This document shows positions 1 through 43,559 of a stretch of DNA of 43,559 nucleotides, piece by piece. The stretch spans positions 1-43,559 of IMG/VR virus record IMGVR_UViG_3300036778_000065; one strand, 5' to 3'. The notes beneath the pieces are model-generated. The model saw nothing but the letters and a program-made list of their open reading frames with translations, was not told where the DNA came from and did no database searches. The stretch's first letter is position 1. Each line of letters starts with the position of its first letter. The position numbers and the translations under genes were made by a program. This DNA is from a virus (lineage: Duplodnaviria; Caudoviricetes).

Positions 1-50
1 AAGGGATTAGTAGCGACTTATTCAATCACGCCACACTAACTATGTCAAGG

Positions 51-117
51 GAAAAGAAAAGGCACCCTCCCGCTCTCCGCAAAAAGAGCCTTATCCGGTT
101 GGGTGCCTCTCTCTTTC
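51..117 (-). terminator. Candidate terminator / stem-loop ending the leftward operon
   Basis: AGGCACCC (60-67) pairs with GGGTGCCT (101-108), inner GCTCT/AGAGC stem; followed on the minus strand by TTTTCTTTTC. Confidence 0.4.
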
Positions 118-200
118 GGAACGCAGGAATGAGGAACCCGCGCCGTTACTGCATTATAACGCAGCTACCTATGTGGGAACGATTCCCACGCCTCGCTGTT

Positions 201-428
201 TTACCTTCCGCATCCCTTCCGGCACGATGGAGGCCGGGGCCGCTTCGACAGGGCCACCAGCTCCTCGCATAACTCTTGCGCCTCACGGATCGTCAGGGCA
301 TCGTCGGACTCCCAGGTGAAGCTTCCGTCCGGCAGCCGCGCCAGCAGCAGCAGGTGACTCAGGTAGCCCTCTTCCATCGCCTCGATCACCGATGGCTGAC
401 ACACATGCTTGAGTCCGGCAGTCGCCAT
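201..428 (-). CDS. Hypothetical protein
   Basis: 75 aa ORF tightly packed after 430..699 in a leftward operon. Confidence 0.55.
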   Translation of the reverse strand: MATAGLKHVCQPSVIEAMEEGYLSHLLLLARLPDGSFTWESDDALTIREAQELCEELVALSKRPRPPSCRKGCGR

Positions 429-429
429 C

Positions 430-699
430 TCAATTCGCCCGTACCTTGGGTTCGTCGTGCTTGTCCGCGTCGTAGACCTTCACCACCTGCATCACGTTGC
501 CGTTTTGATCGACAGGCAGCGCGATTACACAGCTCACCAGCACTCGCCCAGGCAACGTCTCCACGTTCCCACGGCCACGGACGCCGGTTATCATCCCCGC
601 GTCCTTCAACTCCGCCACAAACCCGAAAATCGACGCTTCTGGCAGGGCCACAACCAACTTATCGCCCATGCTCAACGTGTTCCCAATGCGATCCTTCAT
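430..699 (-). CDS. Hypothetical protein
   Basis: 89 aa ORF, ATGA overlap with 696..935. Confidence 0.7.
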   Translation of the reverse strand: MKDRIGNTLSMGDKLVVALPEASIFGFVAELKDAGMITGVRGRGNVETLPGRVLVSCVIALPVDQNGNVMQVVKVYDADKHDEPKVRAN

Positions 700-935
700 C
701 CCCTGAACCTCCTAATTTTTTCCTCTTCCACTGCTATCATCTTTCGCATATCGGCCCACTTCCATTTTTCACCACGGCCAATGCTCAGATAGGTGAAACA
801 AAATCTTACCCCCATCAAAAACATCATCCTCAAAAGAATGAATGACCTCGCATCTTTGGCAACCATACTCACGTCAGTCCTGAAAAAGTCATCCAGTAGA
901 CCATCAAAAACACCTTCCAAGCCGTCTTTTTCCAA
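696..935 (-). CDS. Hypothetical protein
   Basis: 79 aa ORF with GGAGG upstream, coupled to the next gene. Confidence 0.6.
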   Translation of the reverse strand: MEKDGLEGVFDGLLDDFFRTDVSMVAKDARSFILLRMMFLMGVRFCFTYLSIGRGEKWKWADMRKMIAVEEEKIRRFRG

Positions 936-950
936 AAAACTATACCTCCA

Positions 951-1787
951 TCATGACTTCATGTTTGAATTTTGCGGTAAACCCCGTAATGCCTTCTCCA
1001 ATGGAGACAATTCCCGTTCAGCATACCGCTTCTTGAAGGCATCAGCCGCCACAGGGTCATACACGGTCGGTGTTGGAGCTACCCCCACACATGCTCTCGC
1101 CTGGAGCCGCGCAGTCTCATCCTCCTTGTCCTCGCGCCACTCGCTCCAACTGCGATGCGGCCCCCTTACCCGTTGCCAATGTTCGCGACGTAGCTCACGA
1201 CCGCGCTGCTCTGAAGCGCAGACCTCCGCATCAGGGACAGGCCGTCGTGGTGAGACGCGCTCAGAGAACTTCTCCCGCCGCGCAACAGCGCGGGAAGTAG
1301 TTGTTTGTTTTTCAATCTCTGGTAGTTGCTTTACGGGGGCATTTTTGCGCCCCCCTACGGGCAGCGGACGAGACAGAAAAAAATCGTCATCAAGGTGGGG
1401 TAGAAAGTACACGCTGGTGTGATTGGAAAGACGAGCGTATTTGCGGAAGGTGGTCACGACGACACTGAGACCTTCAAGCATCCGCAGCCGTCGCCGGATC
1501 GTGGTCACGTCTACTCCGGCGCGTTCGGCCAAGTCCGGCACCGAGGGAAAACAGGTGCGCGTCTGGTGATTCATCATCTCCAGCAGATCGAGGTAAGTGG
1601 CTAGAAGTCCTGGCTTACGAATGTACCGCCGCGCCCGGATCGGGAGCATGACGAATCTTCCGCCTAACCCTTTATTCACAGGAATTTGAGGATTGCCATG
1701 CTTGACATGACTTCTTGATGCTGCTACGGTTTCCATAACGTCCTTTCTGGGGACAAAAAACTCCTGCACCATGCGCGACCAACGCAT
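951..1787 (-). CDS. Helix-turn-helix replication-initiator-like protein (HTH_36-type); true start may be at 1736 or 1649
   Basis: CFPSVPDLAERAGVDVTTIRRRLRMLEGLSVV...SNHTSVY is the typical wHTH of phage/plasmid initiators. Confidence 0.65.
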   Translation of the reverse strand: MRWSRMVQEFFVPRKDVMETVAASRSHVKHGNPQIPVNKGLGGRFVMLPIRARRYIRKPGLLATYLDLLEMMNHQTRTCFPSVPDLAERAGVDVTTIRRRLRMLEGLSVVVTTFRKYARLSNHTSVYFLPHLDDDFFLSRPLPVGGRKNAPVKQLPEIEKQTTTSRAVARREKFSERVSPRRPVPDAEVCASEQRGRELRREHWQRVRGPHRSWSEWREDKEDETARLQARACVGVAPTPTVYDPVAADAFKKRYAERELSPLEKALRGLPQNSNMKS

Positions 1788-2172
1788 AGGGGTTGAATGG
1801 CTAATAGGGTTGATTGTGATTCAAGGGGGTTTGGGTGTTCCGACCCGGCCCTCTACCTTTGAAGGTTGAAGCGGTTTGAGAGAGCTTCGCAGGGTTTCGA
1901 CCCACGAAGAGAACTCAGACCGCTTTTACTTTGCGCGCCGTCAATCCGGTCAGGCCGCAATCCGCCGTCGAACGGCGAACGATTCGCAACTAAATTTTGG
2001 GAGAATGAAGACGTGTTGGTTGGGTCAAACTGCATGGTATTCCCTCACAAAGCACCTTGAAGGAGGCGGGGGAGGGTGCTCTCCCCCGGCCATTGCGCCG
2101 GGGATCAGTCCGGCGTTTACCTACAAGTTGAAACGGATCGCTAGGCCGCCGCCCACTCGATCTTGGTTTGAG

Positions 2173-2201
2173 GTTATAGCAAACTATTGAAAATTAAGCC
2201 A
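2173..2201 (-). promoter_or_regulatory. Putative sigma70-type promoter for the rep-like operon
   Basis: Minus strand TGGCTT-17 bp-TATAAC with TG extended -10; near-palindrome TAACGGTTAACTGTTA just upstream (2214-2229). Confidence 0.4.
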
Positions 2202-2241
2202 CTAACCTTCAAGTAACGGTTAACTGTTAAGGTTCTATCAC

Positions 2242-2499
2242 TTAGACCTCGCCAAGATACTCCCAGACGTGGATTCTGGAGTCCGTGTCGTCGGTCAGGG
2301 TGCCGTCAGGGTGCCGCACCGCCAGGAACGTCGTGTTGATGTCGCCAGCGCGGAAGGCGACGTACTTCTCAGCGACCTCGCCCACCCAGACCGTCACCGC
2401 GTAGTCAGACGGATCGCGCCCGATCACGACGACCGTCTTCACCACCAGATCATCCGCCAGCAGCTCCCGCCCCATCTCAGGTGATTTTTGTGCTTCCAT
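2242..2499 (-). CDS. Hypothetical protein
   Basis: 85 aa ORF overlapping the upstream gene, GGAGG RBS. Confidence 0.7.
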   Translation of the reverse strand: MEAQKSPEMGRELLADDLVVKTVVVIGRDPSDYAVTVWVGEVAEKYVAFRAGDINTTFLAVRHPDGTLTDDTDSRIHVWEYLGEV

Positions 2500-2776
2500 C
2501 GTCTTTCCTCCGCCACGGATGCGCCGTGAGCGTCTGTACCATCTGCGCGAAGGCCATCCGCGAGTGTTCTGGGATGGCCATAAGCGAACTCAGTTGTAAA
2601 GTCATGTTGCCGTCAAACATCAGCACCGAAGCGCAGTAGCAGCACACCGTAAAATCCGTTGGCTCCGGCTTGTGATCCTCTTCCATCGCCGTCGCCGCGT
2701 CCAATCTGGTGAAGCACACCGGACAGAACGAGTCCGACAAACGGTACGTCTGCGGATCATGCTTCCACTTCGTCAT
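2477..2776 (-). CDS. Cys-rich (CxxC...CxxC) zinc-binding hypothetical protein
   Basis: CPVC and CCYC motifs; GAGG RBS. Confidence 0.7.
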   Translation of the reverse strand: MTKWKHDPQTYRLSDSFCPVCFTRLDAATAMEEDHKPEPTDFTVCCYCASVLMFDGNMTLQLSSLMAIPEHSRMAFAQMVQTLTAHPWRRKDDGSTKIT

Positions 2777-3053
2777 CCTCTTCTGGCTCCATCTCCGCCT
2801 TCGTCGCGAAGACGATGGCGTTACCCACTATTGGATCACGCCGACCGTGTTGATAGATGCGCGTGGCCGGGATGTTCAACTCCAGCCCTTCGAGCTTGCC
2901 CATTTCGTTGATGACCATGAACTCGCCGTCCACGGTGCGAACAATTTCGATGTAGCCGCCCACGATGGCCTGTAACTCCGCCAGCGTGAAGTAGCCGCCG
3001 TGGGGAGGGTGAATCTCCTTAGTGCGCCCAGATGTTTCATATAAAACAGCCAC
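2757..3053 (-). CDS. DUF3846-family protein
   Basis: TLAELQAIVGGYIEIV...NEMGKLEGLELN..AT...DPIVGNAIV signature; GGAGG RBS. Confidence 0.8.
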   Translation of the reverse strand: MAVLYETSGRTKEIHPPHGGYFTLAELQAIVGGYIEIVRTVDGEFMVINEMGKLEGLELNIPATRIYQHGRRDPIVGNAIVFATKAEMEPEEDDEVEA

Positions 3054-3263
3054 CTACTACCTCCATTTTCTATTCGTTCTAACGTCCCTGATAGTTGCGG
3101 GGGCCGCTTCTAAGACGCTCTCCCAACACTATGACCGTCTTTCCACAGTCACAGATGCAACTCCAAGTCATCCCCGCTTTGGGGATCAATTTATGAGATT
3201 TAAGGGCAACAAGAGACGCGAACCGTTGTCCCGTAATATCTATAACTCGACCGCCCATCAGTG

Positions 3264-3473
3264 CTACTCGCCTCCATCTGTGGACGTGGGAGCCACGTTC
3301 GTCAGGTCGATCACCAGTTCCGTGATGCGGGATGCGCTCTCAAAGCCGGAACCCTTGAGATGGCCGAGGAGAAAGAATAGCTCCGAGCGGGGGTCGGTGC
3401 CCTTCGGGAGCAGCGCGGCGGAGGGTTTGGGTTGCGTGGTTGTGGTTGTAGGTGTTTTGGCCAATGGGGTCAC
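3264..3473 (-). CDS. Hypothetical protein
   Basis: 69 aa, GTGA overlap with 3470..3709. Confidence 0.55.
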   Translation of the reverse strand: MTPLAKTPTTTTTQPKPSAALLPKGTDPRSELFFLLGHLKGSGFESASRITELVIDLTNVAPTSTDGGE

Positions 3474-3709
3474 TCACTTTCAGGGTTGAATTTGCGTTTT
3501 TCCTTGGTGATGCGCTTCTTGGCCTCAGCGACCAGGATGCGAACCGCCCAGAAGTTGATGGACATTCCCTCAAGTTCCGCAGCTTCGCGGATAAGCTTGT
3601 TCTGTGAAACATCAGGTCGGAGAGTTTGATTGACGTAGCCGGATCGCTTCTTACTTCTCCTGTCAGGCCGCGCCCCGCCAGCCCTTCGTTTTGGTGTTTT
3701 TGCAGTCAT
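3470..3709 (-). CDS. DUF1778-like ribbon-helix-helix regulator
   Basis: QNKLIREAAELEGMSINFWAVRILVAEAKK pattern. Confidence 0.65.
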   Translation of the reverse strand: MTAKTPKRRAGGARPDRRSKKRSGYVNQTLRPDVSQNKLIREAAELEGMSINFWAVRILVAEAKKRITKEKRKFNPESE

Positions 3710-3735
3710 AATGATGGTAGTATATCTATGAAGTC

Positions 3736-4167
3736 ATGAATAAGTCTACTCAGGTCGAGCGGGAGGTAACTTTCACGGTTCCCTATCTCACTCCGCCATC
3801 TGGAAACCACTACAAAAAGCCGACGAAGTACATAGGCCGCGATGGTTCGCTCCACCTGGGGTTCAAACTCACCAAAGAGACCAAAGCCTACTACGAAGCC
3901 ACGGCCATCTTCGCCAGAGGAGCCACGGTTGCGCCGGACACCGACGCCGAACGCCGCAAGGTGCGGTATGAGGTTCGGATCGACGTGTACCTTGGCCCGA
4001 AGATGCGCGGAGACGAAGACAATTTTCTGAAGGCAGGTGTGGATGCTCTTGTCCGCGCCGGAGTCATCCACAGCGACCACTGTAGCCACAACATCATCAA
4101 CGTCCACCGCGACGACCGCGACAACCCCCGAACCGAATATCGAGTAGAACGACTGGAGCCACAATGA
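3736..4167 (+). CDS. rusA: RusA-family Holliday junction resolvase
   Basis: PPSGNHY N-terminus, GDEDNFLKAGVDAL catalytic motif, GVIHSD, C-terminal NPRTEYRV. Confidence 0.8.
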   Translation: MNKSTQVEREVTFTVPYLTPPSGNHYKKPTKYIGRDGSLHLGFKLTKETKAYYEATAIFARGATVAPDTDAERRKVRYEVRIDVYLGPKMRGDEDNFLKAGVDALVRAGVIHSDHCSHNIINVHRDDRDNPRTEYRVERLEPQ

Positions 4168-4814
4168 GGAAAGACGCATTCAGCGGAGTACAAATGCGTT
4201 GTGTAGTCTGCACGAAATTCATTCCCCCCGGCAGAAAATGGGATAGCGTGACGTGTTCGAAGGAATGCACCAAGGCCCGTCGCGACTTTGGACGCTCCCG
4301 GTTGGACATGACCACTTGCCGGTACTGCCAAAGGCCAGCGACACCGGATGAGCAGGTGCGCTATAAACGCTGGAGGAAGTGGGAAGCCAAGTATGGCGAG
4401 GACTCATTGGAAGGTGGACGCATGACCAGCGAAGAGAAGATCGCCAGAGCCTACAAACTCGCCGCCCAGGAGATGCGCGACAACCCGAAGCACTGGATAT
4501 ACCTCTCGTTCGCCAAGCCCGACACCGGGTTCGCCGGATGCGTCTACGTCGAGGCCCACGGACTCATCACCGCCGTCATCCGCGCCAACGAACTCGGTAT
4601 CAACCCCCACGGCCAAATCGTGGGTGTGGACGTGCCGGACGAGCACCTTATCCCGGAGGAGTACCGCAACCGTCTCCTCACGAAAGAGGAGCATGATAAA
4701 TCCGGCATCACGCTCCACTCACTTGCCGACTTGGACGCAGAGGCCGAGGCCAAGGCTAAAGATTCGGTGGGGATGGTTCCCAATGACGAGAAACCGCAGT
4801 CTACGGAGAGTTAG
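4164..4814 (+). CDS. Hypothetical protein with N-terminal Cys-rich zinc finger (possible internal start at 4422)
   Basis: CVVC..TCSKEC..CRYC; ATGA overlap with rusA; GGAAGGTGG precedes in-frame ATG 4422. Confidence 0.7.
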   Translation: MRKDAFSGVQMRCVVCTKFIPPGRKWDSVTCSKECTKARRDFGRSRLDMTTCRYCQRPATPDEQVRYKRWRKWEAKYGEDSLEGGRMTSEEKIARAYKLAAQEMRDNPKHWIYLSFAKPDTGFAGCVYVEAHGLITAVIRANELGINPHGQIVGVDVPDEHLIPEEYRNRLLTKEEHDKSGITLHSLADLDAEAEAKAKDSVGMVPNDEKPQSTES

Positions 4815-4816
4815 TC

Positions 4817-5155
4817 ATGATCGCAGGAATGATAAACAGTGATGAGCTACAGCAGTCCATTCTCTTCGTCGTGATCGAGCGCGACAACCTTGAGCGGATG
4901 AAGCAAGGCGACCCCGCAACCCTCGAATCCATTATGAAGGGTGGAGTGCTTCTCCCGCCCAGGTGGTACATGAATTTCAGCGTCCTGATTGCCTACGAGG
5001 AAGACGACGCCGAACTCTACCGACACGCCAGAGACGGCAATGGGTTGGAGCTATTGCAATGGCTGGAGCGAGGCCGCAAGTTCGTCAAGGGTCTCGACGG
5101 TGCGGAGAATACATTCAGCATCCGCAAGGAGCCATCCGATGCCAAGCGAAATTGA
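4817..5155 (+). CDS. Hypothetical protein
   Basis: 112 aa, GGAG RBS, operon packing. Confidence 0.7.
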   Translation: MIAGMINSDELQQSILFVVIERDNLERMKQGDPATLESIMKGGVLLPPRWYMNFSVLIAYEEDDAELYRHARDGNGLELLQWLERGRKFVKGLDGAENTFSIRKEPSDAKRN

Positions 5156-5727: not shown

Positions 5728-6303
5728 ATGCAAGGTGAATTTATTAAAGGGTTTTTGATTAAGGCAGGTGATGGCCTCGACAATTCGCTTCCGGGCCGGG
5801 AGCATCCTGTCGATCCAGGCTATGGCGTCCCCGAACTCGGAGGCCCCGTAGACCCCGGTTATGGCGTTCCATTGCCCCCGGTCGTCACGCATCCCATCCA
5901 GCCGACGCCGGGACACCCCATCGTCATCCCGCCAACCTACCCAACCAACGAACTGCCAGGGCATCCCGATAACTCGCTACCCGTTGGCCCCAGTCATCTT
6001 CCGTACCCTCCAATCACCACTTGGCCCCCACCCCAACCCGTCTTCCCCGGTCTGCCCATCTATCCCGACAATGCCCTGCCCATTCCCCCCGGCGCAGTAT
6101 GGCCACCCGTACCGGGCATCAAGGGCAAGGTGCTGTGCTTTGTCTGGATCGTTGGCGTTGGCTACCGCTGGACTGTGATCGACCCGTCGCTCCACGTCGA
6201 TATCGGCTTGCCGGGAGACCAGCCGGGTATCGACAACACGTTGCCGGGTTCGCGTAACCGTCCGAGTAACGAACTTCCACAGACCCCTCAACCGAAACGG
6301 TAA
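5728..6303 (+). CDS. Proline-rich repeat protein
   Basis: TAAGGAG RBS; PVDPGYGVP x2 and six (D/T/S)N(S/E/A/T)LP repeats. Confidence 0.75.
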   Translation: MQGEFIKGFLIKAGDGLDNSLPGREHPVDPGYGVPELGGPVDPGYGVPLPPVVTHPIQPTPGHPIVIPPTYPTNELPGHPDNSLPVGPSHLPYPPITTWPPPQPVFPGLPIYPDNALPIPPGAVWPPVPGIKGKVLCFVWIVGVGYRWTVIDPSLHVDIGLPGDQPGIDNTLPGSRNRPSNELPQTPQPKR

Positions 6304-6309
6304 AAGGCC

Positions 6310-6854: not shown

Positions 6855-7038
6855 CGGATTCATCGCGAAGCACGAGCTTGCCGACAAACACGGACGGCCC
6901 CCGACCGATGGCCAGCGCAGCGAGAAGGAGTACAACATCGCGTCACCGGAGGAGCTGGCCCAACACGTTCAGGGAGCCATGCAGCCCATTCCCCAGGACG
7001 ACGAGCAAGAGCAGCAGCCGGGACAATCGGTGCAGTAA
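6754..7038 (+). CDS. Hypothetical protein immediately upstream of terL (position of a small terminase, no motif support)
   Basis: GGAGGAG RBS; TAATG coupling to terL. Confidence 0.65.
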   Translation: MATQSPVSAAAQKILGAEGKKLHTHGMHIRRTANGFIAKHELADKHGRPPTDGQRSEKEYNIASPEELAQHVQGAMQPIPQDDEQEQQPGQSVQ

Positions 7039-8780
7039 TGCATTTCAACTGGAGAAAGCTACGCGACCCCTCGCAAGAGAACTTCGATAACAAGCGATGG
7101 CGTTCGGAGTTGACCGTGTTGGTGCAGGAAGACGAGCAGGTACGCGAAGACGGACGCCGCGTGTGCCAGCACAATTTACTCGCGCTGTGTTGGGTGTTGG
7201 GCCAGTGTCTTGTGGATGAACACATTCATCATGACGCCATAACCTACTTCCTCGAAAAAAATCCAGAGCTTGAGTTGAACGAGTGGATCAACCTGCATCT
7301 CCACACCCGGCGCGGTTCCCTGCTTCTCCCGCGTGGCGTCTACAAGAGCACCATCTGTCTCGCCAACTGTGTGCAGCTTATCGTGTGTTGGCCGCTGACC
7401 ATCGCGATCATGATTATGTGTGGACGGCGAGACCTCGCCTGGGACTTCGTGGGGCAGGTGGGAAGCTACTTCTACAAGAAGGCGAACCGACCGCCTTCGC
7501 TCTTTCAAGCCCTGTGGCCGGAGCTGTGCGTGACCAAAGAACCGGACAGCGGAGAATTTACGGCCGCAGTTCGGCAGACCGAGCCGGAGATCATCGAACC
7601 CGCGATATGGGGAGAGTCCGTTGAGTCAGGCGTGAGCGGCTACCACCCGAACGTGCTGGTGGTGGATGACGTGTCGAACAACCGGAACTCGCAGACCTTC
7701 ACCGCCCGTAGCCAGATCACCAAAAAGTACAAACTCAATCGCAAGGTGTTGAAGCCGGTTGGCGTCGAGTTGAAGGTGGGAACCATCTACGGCAGTGGCG
7801 ACATCTTCACCGATGAGGTTCTGACCTCGCGCCCAGGCACCGTTCGCCGCGTCATCAAGCCAGCCATGACCCTGAAGAGTGGCGAACGCCTTGACCCCAA
7901 CGGCTTCCCCGAAGAAGACGAAGTGACGTTGCACTTCCCCACTATCCTCAGCTACGACTATCTCCGCAGCGAGTACGAGAGCGGATTCGACTCGTTCATG
8001 ACCCAGTACCAGCTTGACGAGTACGGAGCCGCCGAGGTTGTGTTCGCCCAGGAGCAGATGCTTGCCGCCATGATCGAGGAGAACGCGCTACCGCTTGAAG
8101 GCAAGACGTTCATCCACTGGAGGCTTCCATGCCGGAACAAGGAATGGAGGACGGCGACCGCCGCCGTGGGGATGCTCCACCGCAACCGCTGCTACATCGC
8201 GGAAGTGATCGACGGCCACTACAAGCCGAGCGTGTTGGCCCGTAACGTCGTCACCCTTGCGCGGAAGCACTCGCTCCACCGTATCTCCATCGAAGACTCG
8301 CCGGGAGCGCGGCTGATGCAGCCAGCGATCCAAAACTACGCGCTGACCACCGGATGGGATATCGGGATCGACTGGAAGGACTTCGAGGAAGACACCGGAG
8401 AGCGCGACCTCCGCATCCGCAACATCGAGTCCGTACTCGCGACCGGACGACTGCTTTTCAACGCCGGGATGAAACAGCTTCGTGCGCTGATGCTCCAGAC
8501 CACACAGTACGGGATGATTCCAGAGAGCGGTATCCCCGACTGCATTGCGCGAGTGGCTGACAACCTTCCGCAGTCCATCGCCGCCGATGACCTTGAAGAC
8601 GAGGCAGCAGCGTGGAGAGCCGCCGCCGAGACGGATCACTACAACATGGTTTACAACCGTGGCCCGTATGCGCGACCGGAGGCGGAGCCGGAAGAGTCTG
8701 TGATCGAGGAGCCGGAGCCGGGGACGGAACCCTTCAACGATCTGGGTCTCGAAAACATCCTTGGAGGTTTGAACGGGTGA
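7038..8780 (+). CDS. terL: Terminase large subunit
   Basis: Walker A-like LLLPRGVYKST, Walker B VLVVDD, motif III VGT, position before portal. Confidence 0.85.
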   Translation: MHFNWRKLRDPSQENFDNKRWRSELTVLVQEDEQVREDGRRVCQHNLLALCWVLGQCLVDEHIHHDAITYFLEKNPELELNEWINLHLHTRRGSLLLPRGVYKSTICLANCVQLIVCWPLTIAIMIMCGRRDLAWDFVGQVGSYFYKKANRPPSLFQALWPELCVTKEPDSGEFTAAVRQTEPEIIEPAIWGESVESGVSGYHPNVLVVDDVSNNRNSQTFTARSQITKKYKLNRKVLKPVGVELKVGTIYGSGDIFTDEVLTSRPGTVRRVIKPAMTLKSGERLDPNGFPEEDEVTLHFPTILSYDYLRSEYESGFDSFMTQYQLDEYGAAEVVFAQEQMLAAMIEENALPLEGKTFIHWRLPCRNKEWRTATAAVGMLHRNRCYIAEVIDGHYKPSVLARNVVTLARKHSLHRISIEDSPGARLMQPAIQNYALTTGWDIGIDWKDFEEDTGERDLRIRNIESVLATGRLLFNAGMKQLRALMLQTTQYGMIPESGIPDCIARVADNLPQSIAADDLEDEAAAWRAAAETDHYNMVYNRGPYARPEAEPEESVIEEPEPGTEPFNDLGLENILGGLNG

Positions 8781-8961: not shown

Positions 8962-11082
8962 ATGGCCACCGCTGCGTTAGTTGCGGAGAGCAGTTGGTCT
9001 CAGCCCGTTCATGGGCGAGACGTAACCACCCCTGCTGACCCCGCGATTCCAGCGAAATACACCGATCAGGCAGTCCTCTCCATCGTCGTGCAGGACTACC
9101 TCCGCGCCAGCGCATGGCTGAATGATCGACGTTGGCCGCTCAACTGGAATGAGACGGATGTCCTCTACCAATCGCCGCGAACGCTATCGACGTTTGAAGG
9201 ATCGAGCGTCACCCGCGCAAACGTCTCAAGGTTCTCCGTAGCGAAACAAGTTAACTCGCTGGCTCCAGCAATTTCGGGAGCCATTTTTTCTGACCCGACC
9301 CCGTTTGAAATCCGGCCCCGGCCCAACACACAGCAGGACACAGTACGAGCGTGGAAAGAGCTAGTCACCGAACTGCTGGACGAGATTCATTTCAAGCAGG
9401 AGTTGAGCTACGGGATTCAGGGGATGGTCAATCAGGGGACGGTCATCTTCAAAGTGGGATGGGAGACCGAGACCAAGGTTGAGACGCACTACTACCGCAA
9501 GAAAGCCCCGCCGCAAGTGGACATGCCGCTAGGTAATAAAATTACCATCTTCACCGAAGAGTCCGACGAGTTTGAAGCCGTTGACGTGGAGGTTACGCAC
9601 AACCGGCCCGTCTTTGAAAAAGTGAACCTGGGTGAAGTCTTCATAGACCCGAAGTGGGCAGCACCGAACCAGCTTTGGAAGGCGAAGTGGATTGTCCATG
9701 AGAAGTACCTCACCTATGACGACCTCACCAGCCTCCGCGAAAACCCCGACTACGACATCCCGCCCGACGACGTTCTCCGCGCCATGTTCATGCCGGAGAC
9801 CGAGGAGCAGACCGAAGGCATCGAGGCGACCGAGCGCAGCCTAGGCGCGAACCTCAGCATCCACCACGCCGCCTACCGCGACGAGAACTACAGCGAAGAC
9901 CCGCTATTGAAGCCCATGCAGGCACTCGAATGGTGGAACAAGACAGATTGCCGTGTGGTGCTGCAACAGAAATGCGTGATCCGCAACGGCAAACACAAGC
10001 TACCCGAAAAGCCGTTTCTCTCCGCCAACTACTGGGACATGGACAACGCGGGATATGGCATGGGAGTTGGCCGCATCGCCGGGGCAGACCAAAGGGTGGA
10101 GGCAGGGGTACTTAATTCGCTATTAGATATTTTGGCCTTCGCGGTGCAGCCGGAGTATGCCGTGGCGCGTGGAGCGAACGTCCCCACCCAGGATCAAAGG
10201 CGACGACTGGGAGGCATCCGCATGGTGGACGGCAATGACGCCACCAAAGCCATCGCGCTCGTCCCGCAACCGCAGCTCCCGCCCGATGGCTGGAGAGCGA
10301 TTCAAGCCGTCGTCTCATCGAGCGAAGGCGCGACCGGAGCCGACCAAGCCAGCGTCCAAGGCAGTGTGCCGGGACGAGGATCGAGCATCGTCCGCAGCGG
10401 CACCGGAGCCGGATTGGTAGGCCAAGCGTCCAACACCCGTCTGCAATCACCTGTAGACCGCGTGATCGACGGTGTGTTCCTTCCCTTCCTGGCCTTCGTC
10501 TATCACATGGTCAAAGAGCGGATGCCGATATCGGAGATTCGCGATGTGCTTGCCGACCGCACCAAAGACCTCGTTGTTGACTTCCAAGACTTCATGGAGT
10601 CATCGGTTAAGTTCGACACCCTCGCCGGAACCCGTCTCGCCGCACGTAACAAGATGGCCCAGGCACTTCCCTTCCTGCTGGAAGTCTTCGGCAACCAAGC
10701 TTTGGTGCAGCAGCTTTCACAGGTTGGCTACAAAGTCAACGCGCTCGAACTCGTGAAGATGATCCTCGACATGAGCGAGTGGAAGAACCAGAACGACCTT
10801 GTTGTTCCGATGACCGATCAGGAGAAGGCGACGATGATGCAGCAGAACCCCGCCGCCATCAAAGCCCAGGCATCCTCCGCCGAGCTGCAACAGAAGCACC
10901 AGAACGACATGGATTTAGAGGACAAAAAAATAGCTGGCAGAATTGCGACCAAGACTATTGCAACCACGCATCAGGCCGCCGTAGAGTCGCCAATAGACAG
11001 AGCCGCCGCCTTCGCAGAAAGAACCGCTGATGAGCGCCAGATGCAAGCCAGCCAGTTCTATGCGCCAGTAGGAGGCGGATGA
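8962..11082 (+). CDS. Portal protein (podovirus/P22-like size)
   Basis: 706 aa after terL; GTVIFKVGWE, VFIDP, GYGMGVG motifs; helical Gln-rich C-terminus. Confidence 0.8.
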   Translation: MATAALVAESSWSQPVHGRDVTTPADPAIPAKYTDQAVLSIVVQDYLRASAWLNDRRWPLNWNETDVLYQSPRTLSTFEGSSVTRANVSRFSVAKQVNSLAPAISGAIFSDPTPFEIRPRPNTQQDTVRAWKELVTELLDEIHFKQELSYGIQGMVNQGTVIFKVGWETETKVETHYYRKKAPPQVDMPLGNKITIFTEESDEFEAVDVEVTHNRPVFEKVNLGEVFIDPKWAAPNQLWKAKWIVHEKYLTYDDLTSLRENPDYDIPPDDVLRAMFMPETEEQTEGIEATERSLGANLSIHHAAYRDENYSEDPLLKPMQALEWWNKTDCRVVLQQKCVIRNGKHKLPEKPFLSANYWDMDNAGYGMGVGRIAGADQRVEAGVLNSLLDILAFAVQPEYAVARGANVPTQDQRRRLGGIRMVDGNDATKAIALVPQPQLPPDGWRAIQAVVSSSEGATGADQASVQGSVPGRGSSIVRSGTGAGLVGQASNTRLQSPVDRVIDGVFLPFLAFVYHMVKERMPISEIRDVLADRTKDLVVDFQDFMESSVKFDTLAGTRLAARNKMAQALPFLLEVFGNQALVQQLSQVGYKVNALELVKMILDMSEWKNQNDLVVPMTDQEKATMMQQNPAAIKAQASSAELQQKHQNDMDLEDKKIAGRIATKTIATTHQAAVESPIDRAAAFAERTADERQMQASQFYAPVGGG

Positions 11083-13898: not shown

Positions 13899-13909
13899 CC
13901 GCGAGGGCT

Positions 13910-13985
13910 TCGTCACGCCATCCACCCAAGGGAGGGCCGATGCCGTGACGAGTGGACAGGAGGGGTTGGCCAACCCCTCCTCCAC
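13910..13985 (+). promoter_or_regulatory. Two stem-loops downstream of the capsid gene
   Basis: TCGTCACG(13910)/CGTGACGA(13944) stem; perfect 22-bp palindrome GGAGGGGTTGGCCAACCCCTCC at 13959-13980. Confidence 0.55.
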
Positions 13986-14004
13986 CCAACACCGAAGAGG
14001 AAGG

Positions 14005-14690
14005 TTATGAAGTCATATCAAATAGCGTCGCAGCCAACTGAAGGACTCCTGCAACGGACGGATTGTGCGACTGAATACGTTCTACATGCGCGAAAAACTC
14101 ATCGAGAGTCCCGTCATTCTTTAGCAGATTACATTCACCGCAGCAGGGCACAACATTGCCGTGAACATAACCTTTGCTCGAATCGACACGATCCAGGCCG
14201 GAGTAACGAATCTCCATACCCGGAACACGCGAAAGTTGACCTTTGGTTCTGTATTTCACATAGAACACATTCGATGGCTCTTTGCCGCAGTAGGTACACG
14301 GCATCTTCGACACCACTTTTAATTGGGGGAGTGTGAGATGAAATGAAATTCCTTCCCGCGATGGCTCATCGAATTATGAAAACTGTTCCAGATGCACTCA
14401 ATGTTTCGTGCGGGAAGCCACGTAGGTCTTGCTCTGCACTTGAGACAAGAGGTACTGATGCCGTTGCGGAGAGCACGATAAGTCACAACCCGTTCGACCC
14501 CGCACTGACAACGAACCAAACAGGCGCGGTCGGTATATTTTTTAGAACTAACGTACCAATCATTTTCGAGCACAACCCATTTCCCAAACTGCTTCCCTAT
14601 GGGAACTGGTGGATATTTCAAAAAGTTCACTTGCAGGTTGTTAGTATCAGAACGGCGGTACACGCCTACCTGTGCAGACAGGTTTTTCAT
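14005..14690 (-). pseudogene. Free-standing HNH homing endonuclease split by a frameshift
   Basis: N-half IGKQFGKWVVL..CQCG..STSC, C-half PCTYCG..GLDRVDSSKGYVHGNVVPCCGECN; ATGAA duplicated at 14338-14347 separates the frames; AT-richer than flanks. Confidence 0.8.
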
Positions 14691-33407: not shown

Positions 33408-33881
33408 AACACCGGAGATACTAACGTGTGTCCTATGCCCAACGAAGTTTGAACGTCGAACCAGCCGGATGAAATATTGCGATGGGTGCAGACCAAACGC
33501 GAACTACCTAACGCAGCAGAATTGGAGACAAACCAATGCAGAGCATGAGAAGGCGAGACGACAACGATATCATCGCAGCTACTACGTAAAGAAAACGCCC
33601 TGAATTTGCTACTAGGATCGAGGAATACAACAAAACCGAACGAGGAAAGGCAGCACGACGACGGGCAGGAGTAAACCAACAAAGGCGCAGTCCCGAAAAG
33701 ATTGCCGCTCGACAAATGGTGAGATGTGCCATAGTGTGCGGGGTTTTAAAAAAACAACCGTGTGAAGTTTGCGGAGAGACTAAAGTGGAAGCCCATCATG
33801 AGGACTATTCCAAGCCGTTAGACGTGAACTGGTTGTGCAACCCTCACCACAAACAAGTTGATATAGAAAGAAGACGGCGAA
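33303..33881 (+). mobile_element. HNH cassette bounded by 12-bp direct repeats GAAGACGGCGAA
   Basis: Repeats at 33303-33314 and 33870-33881; AT-richer interior; alternative ATPase C-terminus follows the second repeat. Confidence 0.7.
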
Positions 33882-33895
33882 TTAAAGGTGGTTAA
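33361..33895 (+). CDS. HNH endonuclease interrupted by a +1 frameshift at CCC-TGA (programmed or pseudogene)
   Basis: Frame 0: CVLC...YCDGC up to 33600; +1 frame: KQPCEVCGETKVEAHHEDYSKPLDVNWLCNPHH, stop at 33893-33895. Confidence 0.75.
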
Positions 33896-33950
33896 CGAGG
33901 AGGCCGAACCCAAGGCCAAATCAGCCGCCAAGAAACGCGCCAGCAAATAA
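33870..33950 (+). pseudogene. Displaced original 3' end of the SMC-like gene
   Basis: Reads EDGELKVVNEEAEPKAKSAAKKRASK*, versus the current end EDGEVAAVNEEPLNGEPKKNAAKKRTK... Confidence 0.75.
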
Positions 33951-34044
33951 CGAGATTCCCAGACGGACTAAACCCTGACGGGAAGCCGAGACGGATCAAA
34001 GGTTGTGGCCTAGCCACCATCCGGCGAACCGATAAGGCAGAGAA

Positions 34045-34073
34045 GGGGAGTGACGTGCTAGCCGTCACTCCCC
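34045..34073. promoter_or_regulatory. 11-bp perfect stem-loop
   Basis: GGGGAGTGACG-TGCTAGC-CGTCACTCCCC; no U tract. Confidence 0.55.
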
Positions 34074-34096
34074 GCCCCTAAGCACTGAGAGCAGAG

Positions 34097-38320: not shown

Positions 38321-38323
38321 GCC

Positions 38324-38542: not shown

Positions 38543-38626
38543 GTTAGAATCGAAAGAGCGCAGCCAGCTTTCTAAGTTGCCAGAGTGACCGCACCGAGCC
38601 TTCCCTAGACGTTGCCACTGGCAACT

Positions 38627-38660
38627 AAAAAGAGAAAAGCCCGATGCGAGAACATCGGGC
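38627..38660 (-). terminator. Rho-independent terminator on the minus strand
   Basis: GCCCGATG-TTCTCG-CATCGGGC followed by TTTTCTCTTTTT. Confidence 0.75.
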
Positions 38661-38685
38661 CAATCTCAGAAAGGTGGTACGAAAC

Positions 38686-38769
38686 ATGATTGAGCTAAGA
38701 CTCAAGATGGATCGTAACACACTGGCAGCGTTCCTGCTAGTGATAACCCTTCTGATGAAGAAGTGCTAG
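38686..38769 (+). CDS. 27-aa hydrophobic peptide, type I toxin-like (not in ORF track)
   Basis: AGAAAGGTGG RBS; MIELRLKMDRNTLAAFLLVITLLMKKC. Confidence 0.6.
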   Translation: MIELRLKMDRNTLAAFLLVITLLMKKC

Positions 38770-38780
38770 AGCAAGCAGGG

Positions 38781-38826
38781 AAGTGAAAGCGGCCAGCCCC
38801 GGAAACGAGGTTGGCCGCTTCGCTTT
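38781..38826 (+). terminator. Long 3' stem-loop after the small peptide gene
   Basis: AAGCGGCCAGCC...GGTTGGCCGCTT stem. Confidence 0.55.
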
Positions 38827-38934
38827 GGAGCCGATGCGCCGACTACAGCCGCCCAAACGCAGCAAGAGGTTGGGGAGTGTCCCCAACCTCAAGAATCGCC
38901 GGATTAGAACCCGATCAGACCAGCATTCGCCGGA

Positions 38935-39243
38935 CTATGTGCGCCGAGCATCCGGCGCGTACTCGTTAAGCGCATGAGCGACGCGCTTTGCCATTGACTT
39001 TGAGCGACAGATGCAAACCCCGTCCCCGCCCCGCACTACGTTGAAATCGACCGCGACGAACAGCGGGAGCCGACGCGGACGCGGAGGGAGAAAACCCCCC
39101 GCGTCCATTGCCTCAGCGATGCTCACGCCGGAGGCTATCAACTCGGTACGGCTGAAGACGTGGAACGCCCCGCCATACTCGACTATGGCTGGAGCGAACA
39201 CGTCCGCATCGCGCAAGATATCCATTGCGTGTCTGTAATCCAC
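38935..39243 (-). CDS. Hypothetical early protein
   Basis: 102 aa, 3 bp after the preceding stop. Confidence 0.6.
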   Translation of the reverse strand: MDYRHAMDILRDADVFAPAIVEYGGAFHVFSRTELIASGVSIAEAMDAGGFLPPRPRRLPLFVAVDFNVVRGGDGVCICRSKSMAKRVAHALNEYAPDARRT

Positions 39244-39246
39244 CCG

Positions 39247-39675
39247 TCACACCCCCCACGGAGCTTCATCGTACCCAGGCAGGGAGTCGATAAGGCGATC
39301 CTTCAAATGTTCACAGAACCGTTTCGCTTGCGACGTGTCCCACCCGTCATGGTCAGAGCTTTGGTACTCAAAGCACTTAAGCAGTTTGAGAGCCGAGACG
39401 ACGGGCCAGTATTGCCCCGCGACAGAGCCGGAGTAGACGAACGGAGCATCGTATACGATTCCCTCCGAGGGATAGCGGGCCGCGACACTGAGATGTTTTT
39501 CGCGCCAGAGCATATCCCCCAGACAATTAGCTTGCGACAGGTGAGCGAGACGCCCAGGATTACCGAAGGACAGGGAGTGCCAAGCCCCGTCTATCGTTTT
39601 AGCCTCAGCGACGCCGACGAGAGCGATTGAGACGAGAGCGTGGATGTGTTCTTCAGAGACGATGAAAGACGACAT
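39247..39675 (-). CDS. Conserved-looking early phage protein
   Basis: MSSFIVSEEHI...SVAARYP...LKCFEYQSSD...LPGYDEAPWGV; repeat leader upstream. Confidence 0.75.
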   Translation of the reverse strand: MSSFIVSEEHIHALVSIALVGVAEAKTIDGAWHSLSFGNPGRLAHLSQANCLGDMLWREKHLSVAARYPSEGIVYDAPFVYSGSVAGQYWPVVSALKLLKCFEYQSSDHDGWDTSQAKRFCEHLKDRLIDSLPGYDEAPWGV

Positions 39676-39738
39676 TTGAGAAACCCTTTCGGACGGGATA
39701 ACGCGCCCGTCCTTCGCGCTTGAGGGCCGAGGCCCGTT

Positions 39739-39996
39739 TTAGTTGCCCGACAGACACAGCTTGCTTGAGAGCCGCCGCTCACCTTCGATGGTGGGAGCTT
39801 CGGGACTCACAGCTTCGGGCCATGCCGCCTTCACTTCATCAAGGGAGCGATAACAGTTATCGACAATGTTCGCGCCTCTGCCAGAGACACAGACGACCGC
39901 GAACAGTTGCTTTACAGCTTCCCCCTCAGATTCGAGGAAGATGCTTGTGTCTTCACCGTCCACCGCATCCAGCGCAATGATGTACAAGTTGCCCAC
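39739..39996 (-). CDS. Hypothetical early protein
   Basis: TAGTG coupling to 39996..40364. Confidence 0.6.
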   Translation of the reverse strand: MGNLYIIALDAVDGEDTSIFLESEGEAVKQLFAVVCVSGRGANIVDNCYRSLDEVKAAWPEAVSPEAPTIEGERRLSSKLCLSGN

Positions 39997-40364
39997 TAGC
40001 AGACCTCAATTCTGCCAAGGCGGAGAGCCTCAGACGTGTATCCCGACAGTGGCTTTTTAGCGTTGAAGTGAATATCCCGTTCGATGTACAGACCATACGG
40101 GAGCGTGATCGACTCCAGTTCTGCGAACGAAACCCAACCAAGTTCGGGATATCCCATCCCCAGATCACACAGCCCGAAAGCCCTGTCAGGTTCATCCGCA
40201 TCAATCTCTGTCAGGAGCCACGTTGCAGCCCCGCAAGGGTTGAAGAGTTTGAGGACAGGCGCAGGATCATGCGGAGAGTCCGCCGCCCGCGCCTCCATCC
40301 CGCGCTGATAGTTCTCCAGCATCTCGCGACGTTGCGAGTCTAGGAGCATCCGTTGTCTAGCCAT
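39996..40364 (-). CDS. DUF2958-family protein
   Basis: PVLKLFNPCGAATWLLTE...AFGLCDLGMGYPELGWVSFAEL...IERDIHF. Confidence 0.85.
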   Translation of the reverse strand: MARQRMLLDSQRREMLENYQRGMEARAADSPHDPAPVLKLFNPCGAATWLLTEIDADEPDRAFGLCDLGMGYPELGWVSFAELESITLPYGLYIERDIHFNAKKPLSGYTSEALRLGRIEVC

Positions 40365-40478
40365 TTTTTGAAATCCTTTCGGTTGAGGGCCGAGGCCCGT
40401 TGACGTTTAGCGCGTGGAGGCTTTGGACTCCACTAGCCGCATTAACGCGAGAGGCCGAAGCCCCCGCGCCCATCTGCG

Positions 40479-40787
40479 TTAAGCGTATATCGGTACGTCC
40501 TGCGAATGGTCATTGATCCATTGCCAGTACCGATCATAAGGGAGAGCGCAGGACAAATAGCGATCAGTTGCAATCCACCCCTCCGCCTCTAAGTTGTGAT
40601 CGACAGCCACAGACTGCAAGCGCAAAGCCTCACGCTTGTAATAGAGCCGAAGGTTAGCGACAATTCCAGCCCGCCCCAACTCTCGCGCATGAGCTTTAGC
40701 AGCTTCCGCCGCCACAGAGACAATACTTTCGTGAGTCATCATTTCCCTCGCTAATTCTTCATCGGAGATGCAAAACAGTTGGTTCAT
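40479..40787 (-). CDS. Hypothetical early protein
   Basis: GAAAGGA RBS within repeat leader. Confidence 0.7.
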   Translation of the reverse strand: MNQLFCISDEELAREMMTHESIVSVAAEAAKAHARELGRAGIVANLRLYYKREALRLQSVAVDHNLEAEGWIATDRYLSCALPYDRYWQWINDHSQDVPIYA

Positions 40788-40822
40788 AGTCCATTCCTTT
40801 CGGTTGAGGGCCGAGGCCCGTT

Positions 40823-41122
40823 TTAGGATGCCGCCCGCGTTAGCGGGAGGGAGTAGTCAAAGGGAGAGACCGGAATCGAACGCACATACGGACGCTCACC
40901 GCGCCATCGCAGATAACTAGCGTAACGATCTAAGAGATACATTTCGAGTTTGAATACTTGCTCAGGGGAGGCAGATGAAGTCATGACTTCAGAGCCGACA
41001 ATGCGGACGCGCTTGCCATCCACACAATAAACCGCATCCGCACCCCCGCCCAGGCCGCCGCAAACGATGAAGTTTACGCCGCGACAGGGGCAAGAATCGT
41101 AACCACAACCGTCATTACGCAT
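40823..41122 (-). CDS. Hypothetical early protein
   Basis: GAAAGGA RBS within repeat leader. Confidence 0.65.
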   Translation of the reverse strand: MRNDGCGYDSCPCRGVNFIVCGGLGGGADAVYCVDGKRVRIVGSEVMTSSASPEQVFKLEMYLLDRYASYLRWRGERPYVRSIPVSPFDYSLPLTRAAS

Positions 41123-41236
41123 TGAAAAATTCCTTTCAGTTGAGGGCCGAGGCCCGTTGACGTTTAGCGCGTGGAGGCTTTGGACTCCACTAGCCGCATT
41201 AACGCGGGAGGCTACACCCTCCCGCGCCCATCTGCG

Positions 41237-42124
41237 TTAAGCCGCCTTGACGCCTTTCAACTCCGCCATCCGCTCCGCCAACTGCCAGAGCGCACGATTC
41301 AGCCGCACGTCTTGGTCTATACCGCGAACCTCACGCGTAGTCTCACGCCGAGCCGGACGCCCATCGGCAGCTTGCCGCCATGCGGACAGCCCGCCTTTGA
41401 TGGAGTTTTCCTGTACCACGTTTAGAGTCCTGTACAGGTCAGGAGCGGGCCGAGACCAGCCGTGAGAAGCTTCGCCCGCGCCCGCCCTGTCATCCGAGCG
41501 ACGCGGAGTCAGGAGAGCCGTGGGAGTGATAGCGGTAGACACTACGCCGTCACTGTCAGCAAAGCGGAGCGAATGCGCGGCCTCAGCGAATGCGACTTGC
41601 TCACCCGCTGTCAGTTGGAGAGACGACCAGTTGTCAATCGTACCGAGAGCCGCCCGCGAGTCATCAATAATCTGGAATGACCCGTCAATCACCTGATGCA
41701 CCACGTTTCCTTTGTGCGGGATGGTAATTTCACCCATGTTCCGCTCACAAACCACCATCCCGTTAGTGCAGATCATTCGGAAAATACCCGCGAAAAGCTT
41801 ATAGGATGATGTGCCATCGTGGGAGTTAACTAGGACAACTTCGGGAACGTTCTCGCCTACTCCGACGGCGGACGCGGTAGCATGACGAAACCTAATCATG
41901 TGCTTGGTAAATTCGGACTTGCCTTCGATACGTGAGCGAGACTGGACAGCTTTGAACGGTGAAAAGCCTTCTGCGACTAGGCCCGCGATTACTTCGGACG
42001 TAGGAATGTAGGCGTACCGAGCGGAGCGGGAGGAATGAGCCTCCGTAGCAAAGGCAGACGGTACAACGCGTTGTAAATCGGCAATGGTGAGGGCATTTGA
42101 GAAGGTGCGGTTAAAGCGAGTCAT
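41237..42124 (-). CDS. DUF932 (DUF945-like) family protein
   Basis: RSARYAYIPT, FTKHMIRFR, EVVLVNSHDGTSSY..FAGIFRMICTNGMV, LNVVQEN..KGG, LNRALWQLAE; GGAG RBS before ATG 42124. Confidence 0.85.
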   Translation of the reverse strand: MTRFNRTFSNALTIADLQRVVPSAFATEAHSSRSARYAYIPTSEVIAGLVAEGFSPFKAVQSRSRIEGKSEFTKHMIRFRHATASAVGVGENVPEVVLVNSHDGTSSYKLFAGIFRMICTNGMVVCERNMGEITIPHKGNVVHQVIDGSFQIIDDSRAALGTIDNWSSLQLTAGEQVAFAEAAHSLRFADSDGVVSTAITPTALLTPRRSDDRAGAGEASHGWSRPAPDLYRTLNVVQENSIKGGLSAWRQAADGRPARRETTREVRGIDQDVRLNRALWQLAERMAELKGVKAA

Positions 42125-42192
42125 GCGAATATTCTCCAAGTTCGTGAAGTTGCGGGCCTAAGCCCGTTTGACGTCATAATGACGCTATAAAC

Positions 42193-42221
42193 AATATAGC
42201 GAAAGGCGAGAGCGAATGCAA
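42193..42221 (-). promoter_or_regulatory. Sigma70-type early promoter
   Basis: TTGCAT-17 bp-TATATT. Confidence 0.65.
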
Positions 42222-42242
42222 GCGAATACAGAAAAAAGATGC

Positions 42243-42884
42243 TCAAATGAGCATCTCTAATTCCATCAAGGCAGTACGGATATTGTTGTTAGCTTCTTTG
42301 ACGATGCGGGCGAAGTTTGGCGCGGGCTTATCGGGTGAAGCTTCGTGACTCCAGACGTTCGACAGCAATTCAGTTGCATCCTTCGCGACTCCCCAACTGG
42401 AAAAGTCCAACTGGAAACACCGCGAGCGGAACCGAGTTTTAAGGCTCTCCGTTTCGTTACAGGTGAAGACGAAAATCGTATCAGCGGGCCGAGCCGTTTC
42501 GTCTAGCAGCGACAGAAAAGCGTCCTGAGCCGCTCCGCTCATGCTGTCAGCTTCATCCACTAAAACCACGTGGAAACGCTTGCCAGTCATCGGAACATAC
42601 GCGCAACGTTTGCGGACAGCTTCGACAGCTTCGACGGTACATTTTTGAGAGGGGATATGGTGCAATTCACCGTCTAAATCCGTTGCGAGAGCGAGAGCGA
42701 GAGTAGTTTTCCCCATGCCTGAAGGCCCGCAAAATAGCCAAGCGGATGAACGCGGGCGAGAGATAAGAGCGAGCATCCTCGCCTTTACTTTGTCGAGTCC
42801 GATGAAGTCCGCAACATGCAGCGGGCGATACTTTGACGTAAAGATGACGTCTTGGGTTGATTGAGAGAGCGGAGAGAATAGCAT
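42243..42884 (-). CDS. Clamp-loader-like AAA+ ATPase (DnaX/RFC-type, no collar domain)
   Basis: SKYRP..DFIG, GPSGMGKTT, VLVDEAD, FVFTCN, RSRC motif; 213 aa. Confidence 0.8.
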   Translation of the reverse strand: MLFSPLSQSTQDVIFTSKYRPLHVADFIGLDKVKARMLALISRPRSSAWLFCGPSGMGKTTLALALATDLDGELHHIPSQKCTVEAVEAVRKRCAYVPMTGKRFHVVLVDEADSMSGAAQDAFLSLLDETARPADTIFVFTCNETESLKTRFRSRCFQLDFSSWGVAKDATELLSNVWSHEASPDKPAPNFARIVKEANNNIRTALMELEMLI

Positions 42885-42951
42885 GATTGATTCCTTTCGG
42901 TTGAGGGCCAAAGCCCGCTAGAAGTTGCGCCAAAGGCCCGCGAGAGCGGGC

Positions 42952-43164
42952 TTACAGTGGAGTAATTATGGTTTGAGTGGACTGGAGTGAAACCTTAAAC
43001 TCAGGGGAAGGAAAACGGGCCTTCATATCTGCGAATAGTTCGCGGGCCTGAGATTCGACAATAAAGGGATTCGGAGATGTAGCGAAGTAGTGAACGTATC
43101 TCGGTTCCGTTCGATTCCAGTTGAGTCCATCTGCCTTCGCAACGTTGATTGAGTAGCCTTGCAT
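42952..43164 (-). CDS. Hypothetical protein, first gene of the early operon
   Basis: GAAAGGA RBS within repeat leader; YSINVAK...HYFAT...FPSPEFKV. Confidence 0.7.
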   Translation of the reverse strand: MQGYSINVAKADGLNWNRTEPRYVHYFATSPNPFIVESQARELFADMKARFPSPEFKVSLQSTQTIITPL

Positions 43165-43256
43165 GGGTTCGATTCCTTTCGGTTGAGGGCCAAAGCCCGT
43201 TAGAAGTTAGGCGCGAGAGCCGCGCCAAAGGCCCGCGAGAGCGGAGCGTTAGATCG

Positions 43257-43286
43257 AAGATATGCGGAGAGCGGGCCGAATGTCAA
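43257..43286 (-). promoter_or_regulatory. Sigma70-type early promoter
   Basis: TTGACA-18 bp-TATCTT. Confidence 0.65.
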
Positions 43287-43559
43287 GCGCAAACGTGGGG
43301 ACGCTCCCCACGAACAAATAAAACAACGGGCGAATGAGCCGCGAGAGCGGAGCGAATGAGCCGCGAGAAACTGTCCAAGCAAAGGCCCGCGAGAGACGCG
43401 CCAAAGGCCCGCGAGAGAGCCGCGAGAACCCCCCCAAAAGCCGAGCCAGCCAAGCCGAGCCAGCCAAAATAAATGCACAGGGTCTCCAATAAATAAATAG
43501 GGCAGGGGGCGGGGAATCCCTTGCAGATGGGCCAGCAAAAATGTTAGGCTGAACTGTTG

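Follow-up and report, generated by a model that had tools for sequence, protein, structure and literature searches.

We analysed a 43,559-nucleotide stretch of viral DNA (IMG/VR record IMGVR_UViG_3300036778_000065; henceforth the window, meaning the whole of this stretch), which carries the asymmetric hexamer GCCRCC (reverse complement GGYGGC) and many other short words in one orientation only. The window is a 43.6-kb tailed phage with genes for the terminase large subunit (7038–8780, plus strand; phrog_38, E 3e-25), the portal protein (8962–11082, plus strand) and the major capsid protein (12738–13898, plus strand). Its gene set was curated by hand and comprises 64 genes, 20 of them on the minus strand; plus-strand genes cover 31.8 kb and minus-strand genes 7.2 kb (i.e., about 82% of coding bases lie on the plus strand). 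A megablast comparison of 17–31 kb with annotated phages gave no match and no close cultured relative, and a search of the capsid protein against species genomes returned no relative. The best protein match was the portal of Tunturi_3 (35% identity), a podovirus of Tunturiibacter (PMC11924767), and a portal homologue was also found on a 2.3-kb contig, possibly mis-binned, that was binned with Ca. Sulfotelmatobacter (order Terriglobales). These matches point to what is likely a podovirus with an Acidobacteriota host. The portal served as the marker for finding uncultured relatives, which comprised 30 loci in a first set and 80 kept out of 165 in a later one. Genes of the relatives came from a second caller, which in the window shares 55 of 64 stops and 13 of 20 minus-strand genes with the curated set, and the partial loci (L059–L120) were judged by their own words alone.

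A first-pass annotation, made by eye from the sequence, had proposed that GCCRCC occurs in a single orientation across the whole genome, and exact counting bore this out: the plus strand holds 114 copies (85 with R=G and 29 with R=A) spanning positions 253 to 41649 (253–41654 with the last copy in full) and no copy of either reverse-complement form. This is far from the expected frequency of GGYGGC (0 vs 16.9–39.2, depending on the null model), and codon-preserving shuffles did not reproduce the asymmetry. Specifically, we expected 29.9 reverse copies (minimum 17) from 400 shuffles of synonymous codons within genes, and 39.2 (minimum 23) from 400 shuffles drawing on a genome-wide pool. A stricter null model left all proteins, each strand's codon usage and all strand-specific 2-, 3- or 4-base words unchanged (in the last case the counts of all 256 strand-specific 4-mers); across 100 samples it gave 25.4, 18.7 and 16.9 expected reverse copies, with minima of 15, 11 and 6, respectively. 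The loss of the reverse orientation of GCCRCC is real, and it is specific at the level of six bases. Kept copies were 1.5-fold over a plain codon shuffle but showed no excess under the 4-base null (114 observed vs 111.6 expected), meaning that one orientation was purged rather than the other built up.

The polarity is shared by many other words, and the single-motif view of the first-pass annotation, while right about GCCRCC itself, was to this extent incomplete. Across the window (1–43,559), a loose rule identified 49 hexamers that were lost on the plus strand but retained in reverse, while a strict rule (at most 1 reverse copy, at least 6 expected and at least 12 kept copies) identified 32, compared with 0–1.6 in shuffles. 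Among control phages, the strict rule returned 13 hexamers in T7 (recovering the EcoP15I site at 36:0), 4 each in RSB1 and phiKMV, 2 in the first 50 kb of Tunturi_1, and none in BPP-1, LUZ24, lambda or Tunturi_3; 19 relatives of the window had between 4 and 50, in overlapping but different sets. A further 39 words were depleted from both strands under the loose rule, most of which resolved to degenerate palindromes, and 31 of the 64 palindromic hexamers were depleted, with palindromes overall at 0.28 of expectation. This two-strand loss of palindromes and degenerate palindromes has the appearance of the usual footprint of Type II restriction, and resembles the Type II avoidance covered by a survey of cultured phages (PMC6286503).

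We found that polarity is tied to the DNA strand and not to gene direction or the transcript. As the first-pass annotation had noticed, plus-strand genes shun GGYGGC for Gly-Gly (0 of 69 pairs); Ala-Ala and Ala-Thr pairs were encoded as GCCRCC on the coding strand in 63 of 205 cases in plus-strand genes vs 0 of 30 in minus-strand genes, and the mRNAs of the latter contain 14 copies of GGYGGC and none of GCCRCC. Two examples were placed correctly by that annotation: the Gly-Gly pairs at 2955 and 2994 of a minus-strand DUF3846 gene (2757–3053), which put GCCRCC on the plus strand, and a (GGA)7 run of seven consecutive glycine codons at 23326–23346 (plus strand) within the gene at 21472–23460, which from its position likely encodes an internal virion protein. 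Given that only 3.2–7.8 reverse copies of GCCRCC are expected in minus-strand genes, the independence from gene direction rests on a larger word set. Specifically, 52 words were chosen from plus-strand genes only and then scored inside minus-strand genes, where the forms lost on the plus strand were seen 44 times vs 110.5 expected (minimum 82 in 300 shuffles) and the kept forms 199 times vs 151 expected, confirming that the bias ignores coding direction. Raw counts for the same words in non-coding DNA were 22 for lost and 109 for kept forms, and the relatives showed the minus-gene contrast clearly in 15 of 19 cases, weakly in G002 and not at all in G011, G012 and G013. Codon usage differs accordingly between the strands: alanine codons GCC and GCT stand at 467:73 in plus-strand genes and 39:77 in minus-strand genes, and glycine is preferentially GGA in the former and GGC in the latter. 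Silent third positions are A/C-rich on the plus strand in both gene classes (skews of 0.37 and 0.15 in plus-strand genes, 0.28 and 0.07 in minus-strand genes).

The same polarity was found in relatives, though not in all of them. Reverse copies of GCCRCC stood at 0.1–0.4 of expectation in 9 of the 9 relatives tested, and were near zero only in the closest one (81:2), while a more distant group, represented by seven partial loci, gave 83:111; the polarity was absent in Tunturi_3, T7 and phiKMV. Four relatives (G001, G005, G006, G008) passed the polarity rule for the R=G form and three others (G002, G004, G007) for the R=A form; in locus L012 the ratios were 31:2 for one form and 17:8 for the other. 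Since the two forms are polarised in different relatives, GCCRCC may represent two separate specificities, both complete in the lineage of the window.

Kept words are mostly A/C-rich on the plus strand (29 vs 2 in the window), and alike in most of the 59 loci of at least 9 kb; G011 keeps mostly G/T-rich words (8 vs 16). Under a strand-symmetric codon model, the kept orientation was the one that proteins alone make commoner for 32 of 37 words in the window and in 547 of 639 word-genome cases, i.e., the orientation cheaper to lose is the one removed. Across 20 genomes, 144 words were polar in the same sense in at least two genomes and 23 words were polar in opposite senses. Given that proteins usually favour the kept orientation and that some words flip between lineages, a signal of fixed direction is not needed; the flips, few as they are and in part from genomes that fail the held-out test, would favour a mechanism in which orientation is arbitrary. 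As a separate observation, palindromes are not avoided in G015 (L134–L136; 1.12 of expected), yet its 40 strict words are among the largest sets; it also has the strongest silent-site skew. G003 and G018 are intermediate. In G015, another defence against Type II enzymes may operate, or its hosts may differ.

The two genome ends differed in their tolerance of reverse copies. For the window, words were chosen from the core only: in the left terminal zone (1–5000) reverse copies of polar words were partly tolerated (52 vs 72 expected), whereas in the right terminal zone (38560–43559), which consists mostly of minus-strand genes, polarity held against gene direction (10 vs 60 expected). Palindromes were lost from both (0 vs 37 expected in the left 5 kb, 3 vs 36 at the right), GCCRCC itself had zero reverse copies at the left end, and 13 of the 43 rare reverse copies in the window fell within its first tenth. 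Pooling strict words over 15 genomes, reverse copies were at 0.60 and 0.48 of expectation in the first and second kilobases and dropped to 0.18 in the fifth, while the right end was flat (0.17–0.27) and left palindromes stayed at 0.00–0.06. Within the outer 2.5 kb, with overlaps merged, we counted 55 reverse copies vs 114 expected at the left (0.48) and 26 vs 118 at the right (0.22). Tolerance was greater at the left than at the right in 11 of 13 genomes (Wilcoxon p 0.010; G008, whose left end is missing, was dropped and G014 gave no strict words), a comparison made among related genomes and with end sizes chosen after the profile was seen. Adenine-free words showed no visible end effect, on small counts (3 vs 12 expected at the left, 2 vs 13.5 at the right). 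The same-word geometry of terminal reverse copies was close to permutation at the left (99 of 161 vs 93.3 +/- 5.6, p 0.18) and the right (65 of 89 vs 59.1, p 0.17).

Near-full-length relatives start and end at homologous positions, and neither a left-right end match nor a terminal repeat was found among the terminal 500 bases (1–500 and 43060–43559 in the window, and likewise in relatives). This suggests defined, fixed and non-redundant termini in a terminase-packaged podovirus, in genomes that the source collection labels as linear and possibly incomplete. The last 350 bases of the window contain short tandem-like repeats.

One-sided loss, six-base specificity, independence from gene direction, parallel loss of palindromes and relatives that behave alike with different word sets are all directly observed, and their most probable explanation is that the phage evades many orientation-dependent host restriction systems (Type III, Type ISP or MANTIS-like). 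Hosts would carry many systems whose mark is on one strand only and whose cutting requires two unmarked sites in opposite orientation; each polar word would be the site of such an enzyme met in the Acidobacteriota host population, and with all copies arranged head-to-tail no cutting pair would form. Selection would drop whichever orientation costs less by synonymous change, as a result of which kept words would share a sense and codon usage would differ between plus- and minus-strand genes. Cooperation across specificities could additionally press towards a common sense: EcoP1I and EcoP15I cut DNA bearing one site of each in head-to-head orientation (PMC6158743), as do LlaGI and LlaBIII (PMC3553950). 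The R=G form and other words without adenine would be recognised by Type III enzymes that mark cytosine (N4-methylcytosine, m4C). The first-pass annotation had inferred one orientation-sensitive host system recognising GCCRCC; the class of mechanism (escape from systems that need inverted sites) fits, while a single system is too narrow, given 32 equally polar words and the separate polarisation of the R=G and R=A forms in relatives. As for its suggestion that the mark is probably on cytosine, cytosine-marking Type III systems exist (PMC8259958), and an adenine-free site is no obstacle to them.

The window is a real, large-scale extension of a known principle of escape by strand bias. T7 evades EcoP15I by carrying all 36 sites in one orientation (PMC12707154, PMC3874151), which our analysis recovered as an asymmetric hexamer at 36:0. 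Unlike T7, with its 13 strict words and its known enzyme, the window has 32, offers minus-strand genes as a test (T7 has none), contains words without adenine and keeps words that share a sense, whereas those of T7 are mixed. MANTIS systems recognise asymmetric six-base sites, restrict inverted pairs best and mark adenine, and one-strand depletion of the sites is seen in about 40% of virulent Pseudomonas phages (bioRxiv 10.64898/2026.09.23.753747). The R=G form differs in having no adenine on either strand; the R=A form does contain adenine, as do many of the other polar words, and MANTIS-like systems are possible for these. As far as that preprint describes, it tests known sites, whereas the dozens in the window were found de novo. 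Type ISP enzymes LlaGI and LlaBIII likewise need inverted sites and cut linear DNA in head-to-head arrangement only (PMC3553950), although we could link no site in the window to such an enzyme. In BREX, too, the mark is on one strand (PMC11842806), but according to the MANTIS preprint the system does not depend on inverted sites. T7 itself has 12 strict one-way hexamers besides the EcoP15I site, including the MANTIS site of Pae6684I (23:0), and its PstII site stands at 34:0.

Candidate enzymes were sought among published specificities. In the window, four of 17 m4C Type III sites (PMC8259958) show a polarity that retains the named strand, namely those of BspHIV, PleII, Vna16374II and Bpe564I, their reverse forms being at 0.0–0.2 of expectation (the overlap is a raw count); the seven-base site of Bpe564I contains the R=G form of GCCRCC. 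These systems resemble what we propose in marking cytosine on one strand of C-rich, asymmetric sites; they differ in that none of their listed hosts is an Acidobacterium, and GCCRCC is absent from its Tables 1 and 4. Full-text literature matches to GCCRCC, among those listed, all concerned translation or mRNA design; the motif is also the eukaryotic Kozak context, which we took as a coincidence, the copies sitting within bacterial-type genes. A scan of the candidate host order (121 genomes) put 18 over the cut-off for the Type III endonuclease domain (15 without the unpublished genomes G042, G052 and G099) and 25 for the Type ISP recognition domain (24 without the same three), and adjacent mod and res genes were confirmed in G124 and G060. 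PF12564 (Pfam) matched neither the binned genome nor the controls and was hence uninformative. No gene of methyltransferase or defence type was recognised among the phage open reading frames scanned (32 frames in PHROGs, 30 in Pfam and 12 in PADLOC, in overlapping sets covering part of the 64 genes).

Several observations weigh against evasion of many such systems. Under the 2-, 3- and 4-base nulls, 42, 29 and 15 words are polar, respectively (15 compared with 0–2 in samples), and because the count shrinks as the null absorbs context, the true number of specificities lies somewhere between about 15 and 50; thirty or more would be many for systems that change specificity quickly. Of the 17 published m4C sites, 13 lack clear polarity in the window (three of them are partly polar), and no enzyme or host methylome with any of the polar words was found in the open-access literature. 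The cultured-phage survey saw no systematic strand-asymmetric avoidance of Type I or III sites (PMC6286503), unlike the one-strand avoidance at scale in the family of the window. Flips are few, with relatives agreeing with the window in sense in 198 cases and opposing it in 7, and two of the genomes that contribute most to them, G011 and G013, do not show the held-out minus-gene contrast; the same is true of G012, and G002 is weak. The A/C-rich silent sites of the plus strand in both gene classes could be partly mutational, and the host assignment rests on the 35% portal match and the one binned contig.

Some of these points would suit a host system of fixed direction, which senses how a site is oriented relative to DNA entry or replication and for which one sense is always safe (e.g., a motor that is harmless when moving towards the free end and harmful towards the entry pore). 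The family-wide A/C-richness of kept words (29 vs 2 in the window), the 198 same-sense cases vs 7, and the homologous ends that behave differently from each other are what it would lead one to see; but protein sequence alone predicts the kept orientation (547 of 639), 23 words flip among relatives and G011 keeps mostly G/T-rich ones, making such a system unlikely. We regard as very unlikely a single dominant host system for degenerate GCCRCC with the other words as by-products: most other polar words do not overlap GCCRCC, its two forms are polarised in different relatives and the more distant partial loci stand at 83:111, even though 114:0 in the window, 81:2 in the nearest relative and the depletion in all nine relatives tested would agree with it.

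One-directional replication could bring a strand-specific mutational bias, with C and A lost from the single-stranded strand; acting without selection, such a bias would account for third positions being A/C-rich on the plus strand in both gene classes. With 4-mers fixed, however, 16.9 reverse copies of GCCRCC are still expected and 15 words remain polar, and word sets differ among relatives of similar skew; this bias is largely refuted for contexts of up to 4 bases and is highly improbable as the whole explanation. The Chi-like or translocase signal that the first-pass annotation held out as an alternative, i.e., words accumulated by the phage as polar signals of a host machine (Chi or FtsK orienting polar sequences), found no support: strand polarity is strict and kept copies exceed a plain codon shuffle 1.5-fold, yet this enrichment vanishes with 4-mers fixed (114 vs 111.6), and dozens of unrelated words in sets that vary by lineage make it hardly credible. 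Barely conceivable, lastly, is selection on mRNA rather than DNA (through an RNase site or a codon-pair effect); the transcript and the plus strand largely coincide, at about 82% of coding bases, but minus-gene mRNAs hold GGYGGC (14 copies) and no GCCRCC, and the held-out words track the genome strand, so that the minus-gene test in the window refutes it.

Returning to orientation-dependent restriction, the left-end tolerance may bear on its geometry. With Type III enzymes the cut lies downstream of the named strand; where linear DNA is uncapped, tail-to-tail pairs are poor substrates and sliding enzymes are lost from free ends (PMC3874151, PMC2860699), and either effect would spare reverse copies at the left end. 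For Type ISP enzymes, which on linear DNA cut head-to-head pairs alone, terminal copies that point outwards would be harmless. We treat this tolerance as a lead only. It is possible, though doubtful, that these genomes are a readable record of 30–50 undescribed one-strand-methylating specificities of soil Acidobacteriota, many of them cytosine-based, and jointly that the left-end tolerance reflects geometry-dependent restriction of the linear incoming genome, in which head-to-head pairs would be cut and tail-to-tail or free-end-proximal ones spared. If so, motif polarity could predict, for uncultured phages, both the enzymes of their hosts and the end from which the genome is injected. The tolerance would also offer a genomic handle on a point debated in vitro, namely whether tail-to-tail sites or sites near free ends are cut in the cell. 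One-strand site loss is known from T7 and lately from MANTIS, and here it would be a strategy of the whole family, one that alters codon usage according to strand. Our searches of open-access literature text turned up no report of dozens of co-polarised words across one phage family, and none of an end effect on polar words. For soil bacteria that have hardly been cultured, the word lists provide candidate specificities, which could be matched to methylomes to connect phages with their hosts.

Other features of the window concern its layout. Among the open reading frames scanned, none was recognised as a DNA polymerase, helicase or integrase. A helix-turn-helix, replication-initiator-like gene lies near the left end (951–1787; present in 7 relatives) and a lone clamp-loader-like AAA gene near the right end (42243–42911; in 11 relatives). 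Within 39717–43205, six copies of a 26-base repeat with a short hairpin each lie just upstream of a small minus-strand gene, including genes for DUF2958 (39996–40364) and DUF932 (41237–42139) proteins; 54- and 85-base versions of the repeat exist. Gene content of this region varies much among relatives, and it looks like a modular array of early-gene cassettes, which may have an anti-defence role. No convincing gene was identified in two long stretches, 13899–14754, which follows the capsid gene directly, and 33408–34096, and a proline-rich protein with internal repeats is encoded at 5728–6303 and found in 2 of 19 relatives.

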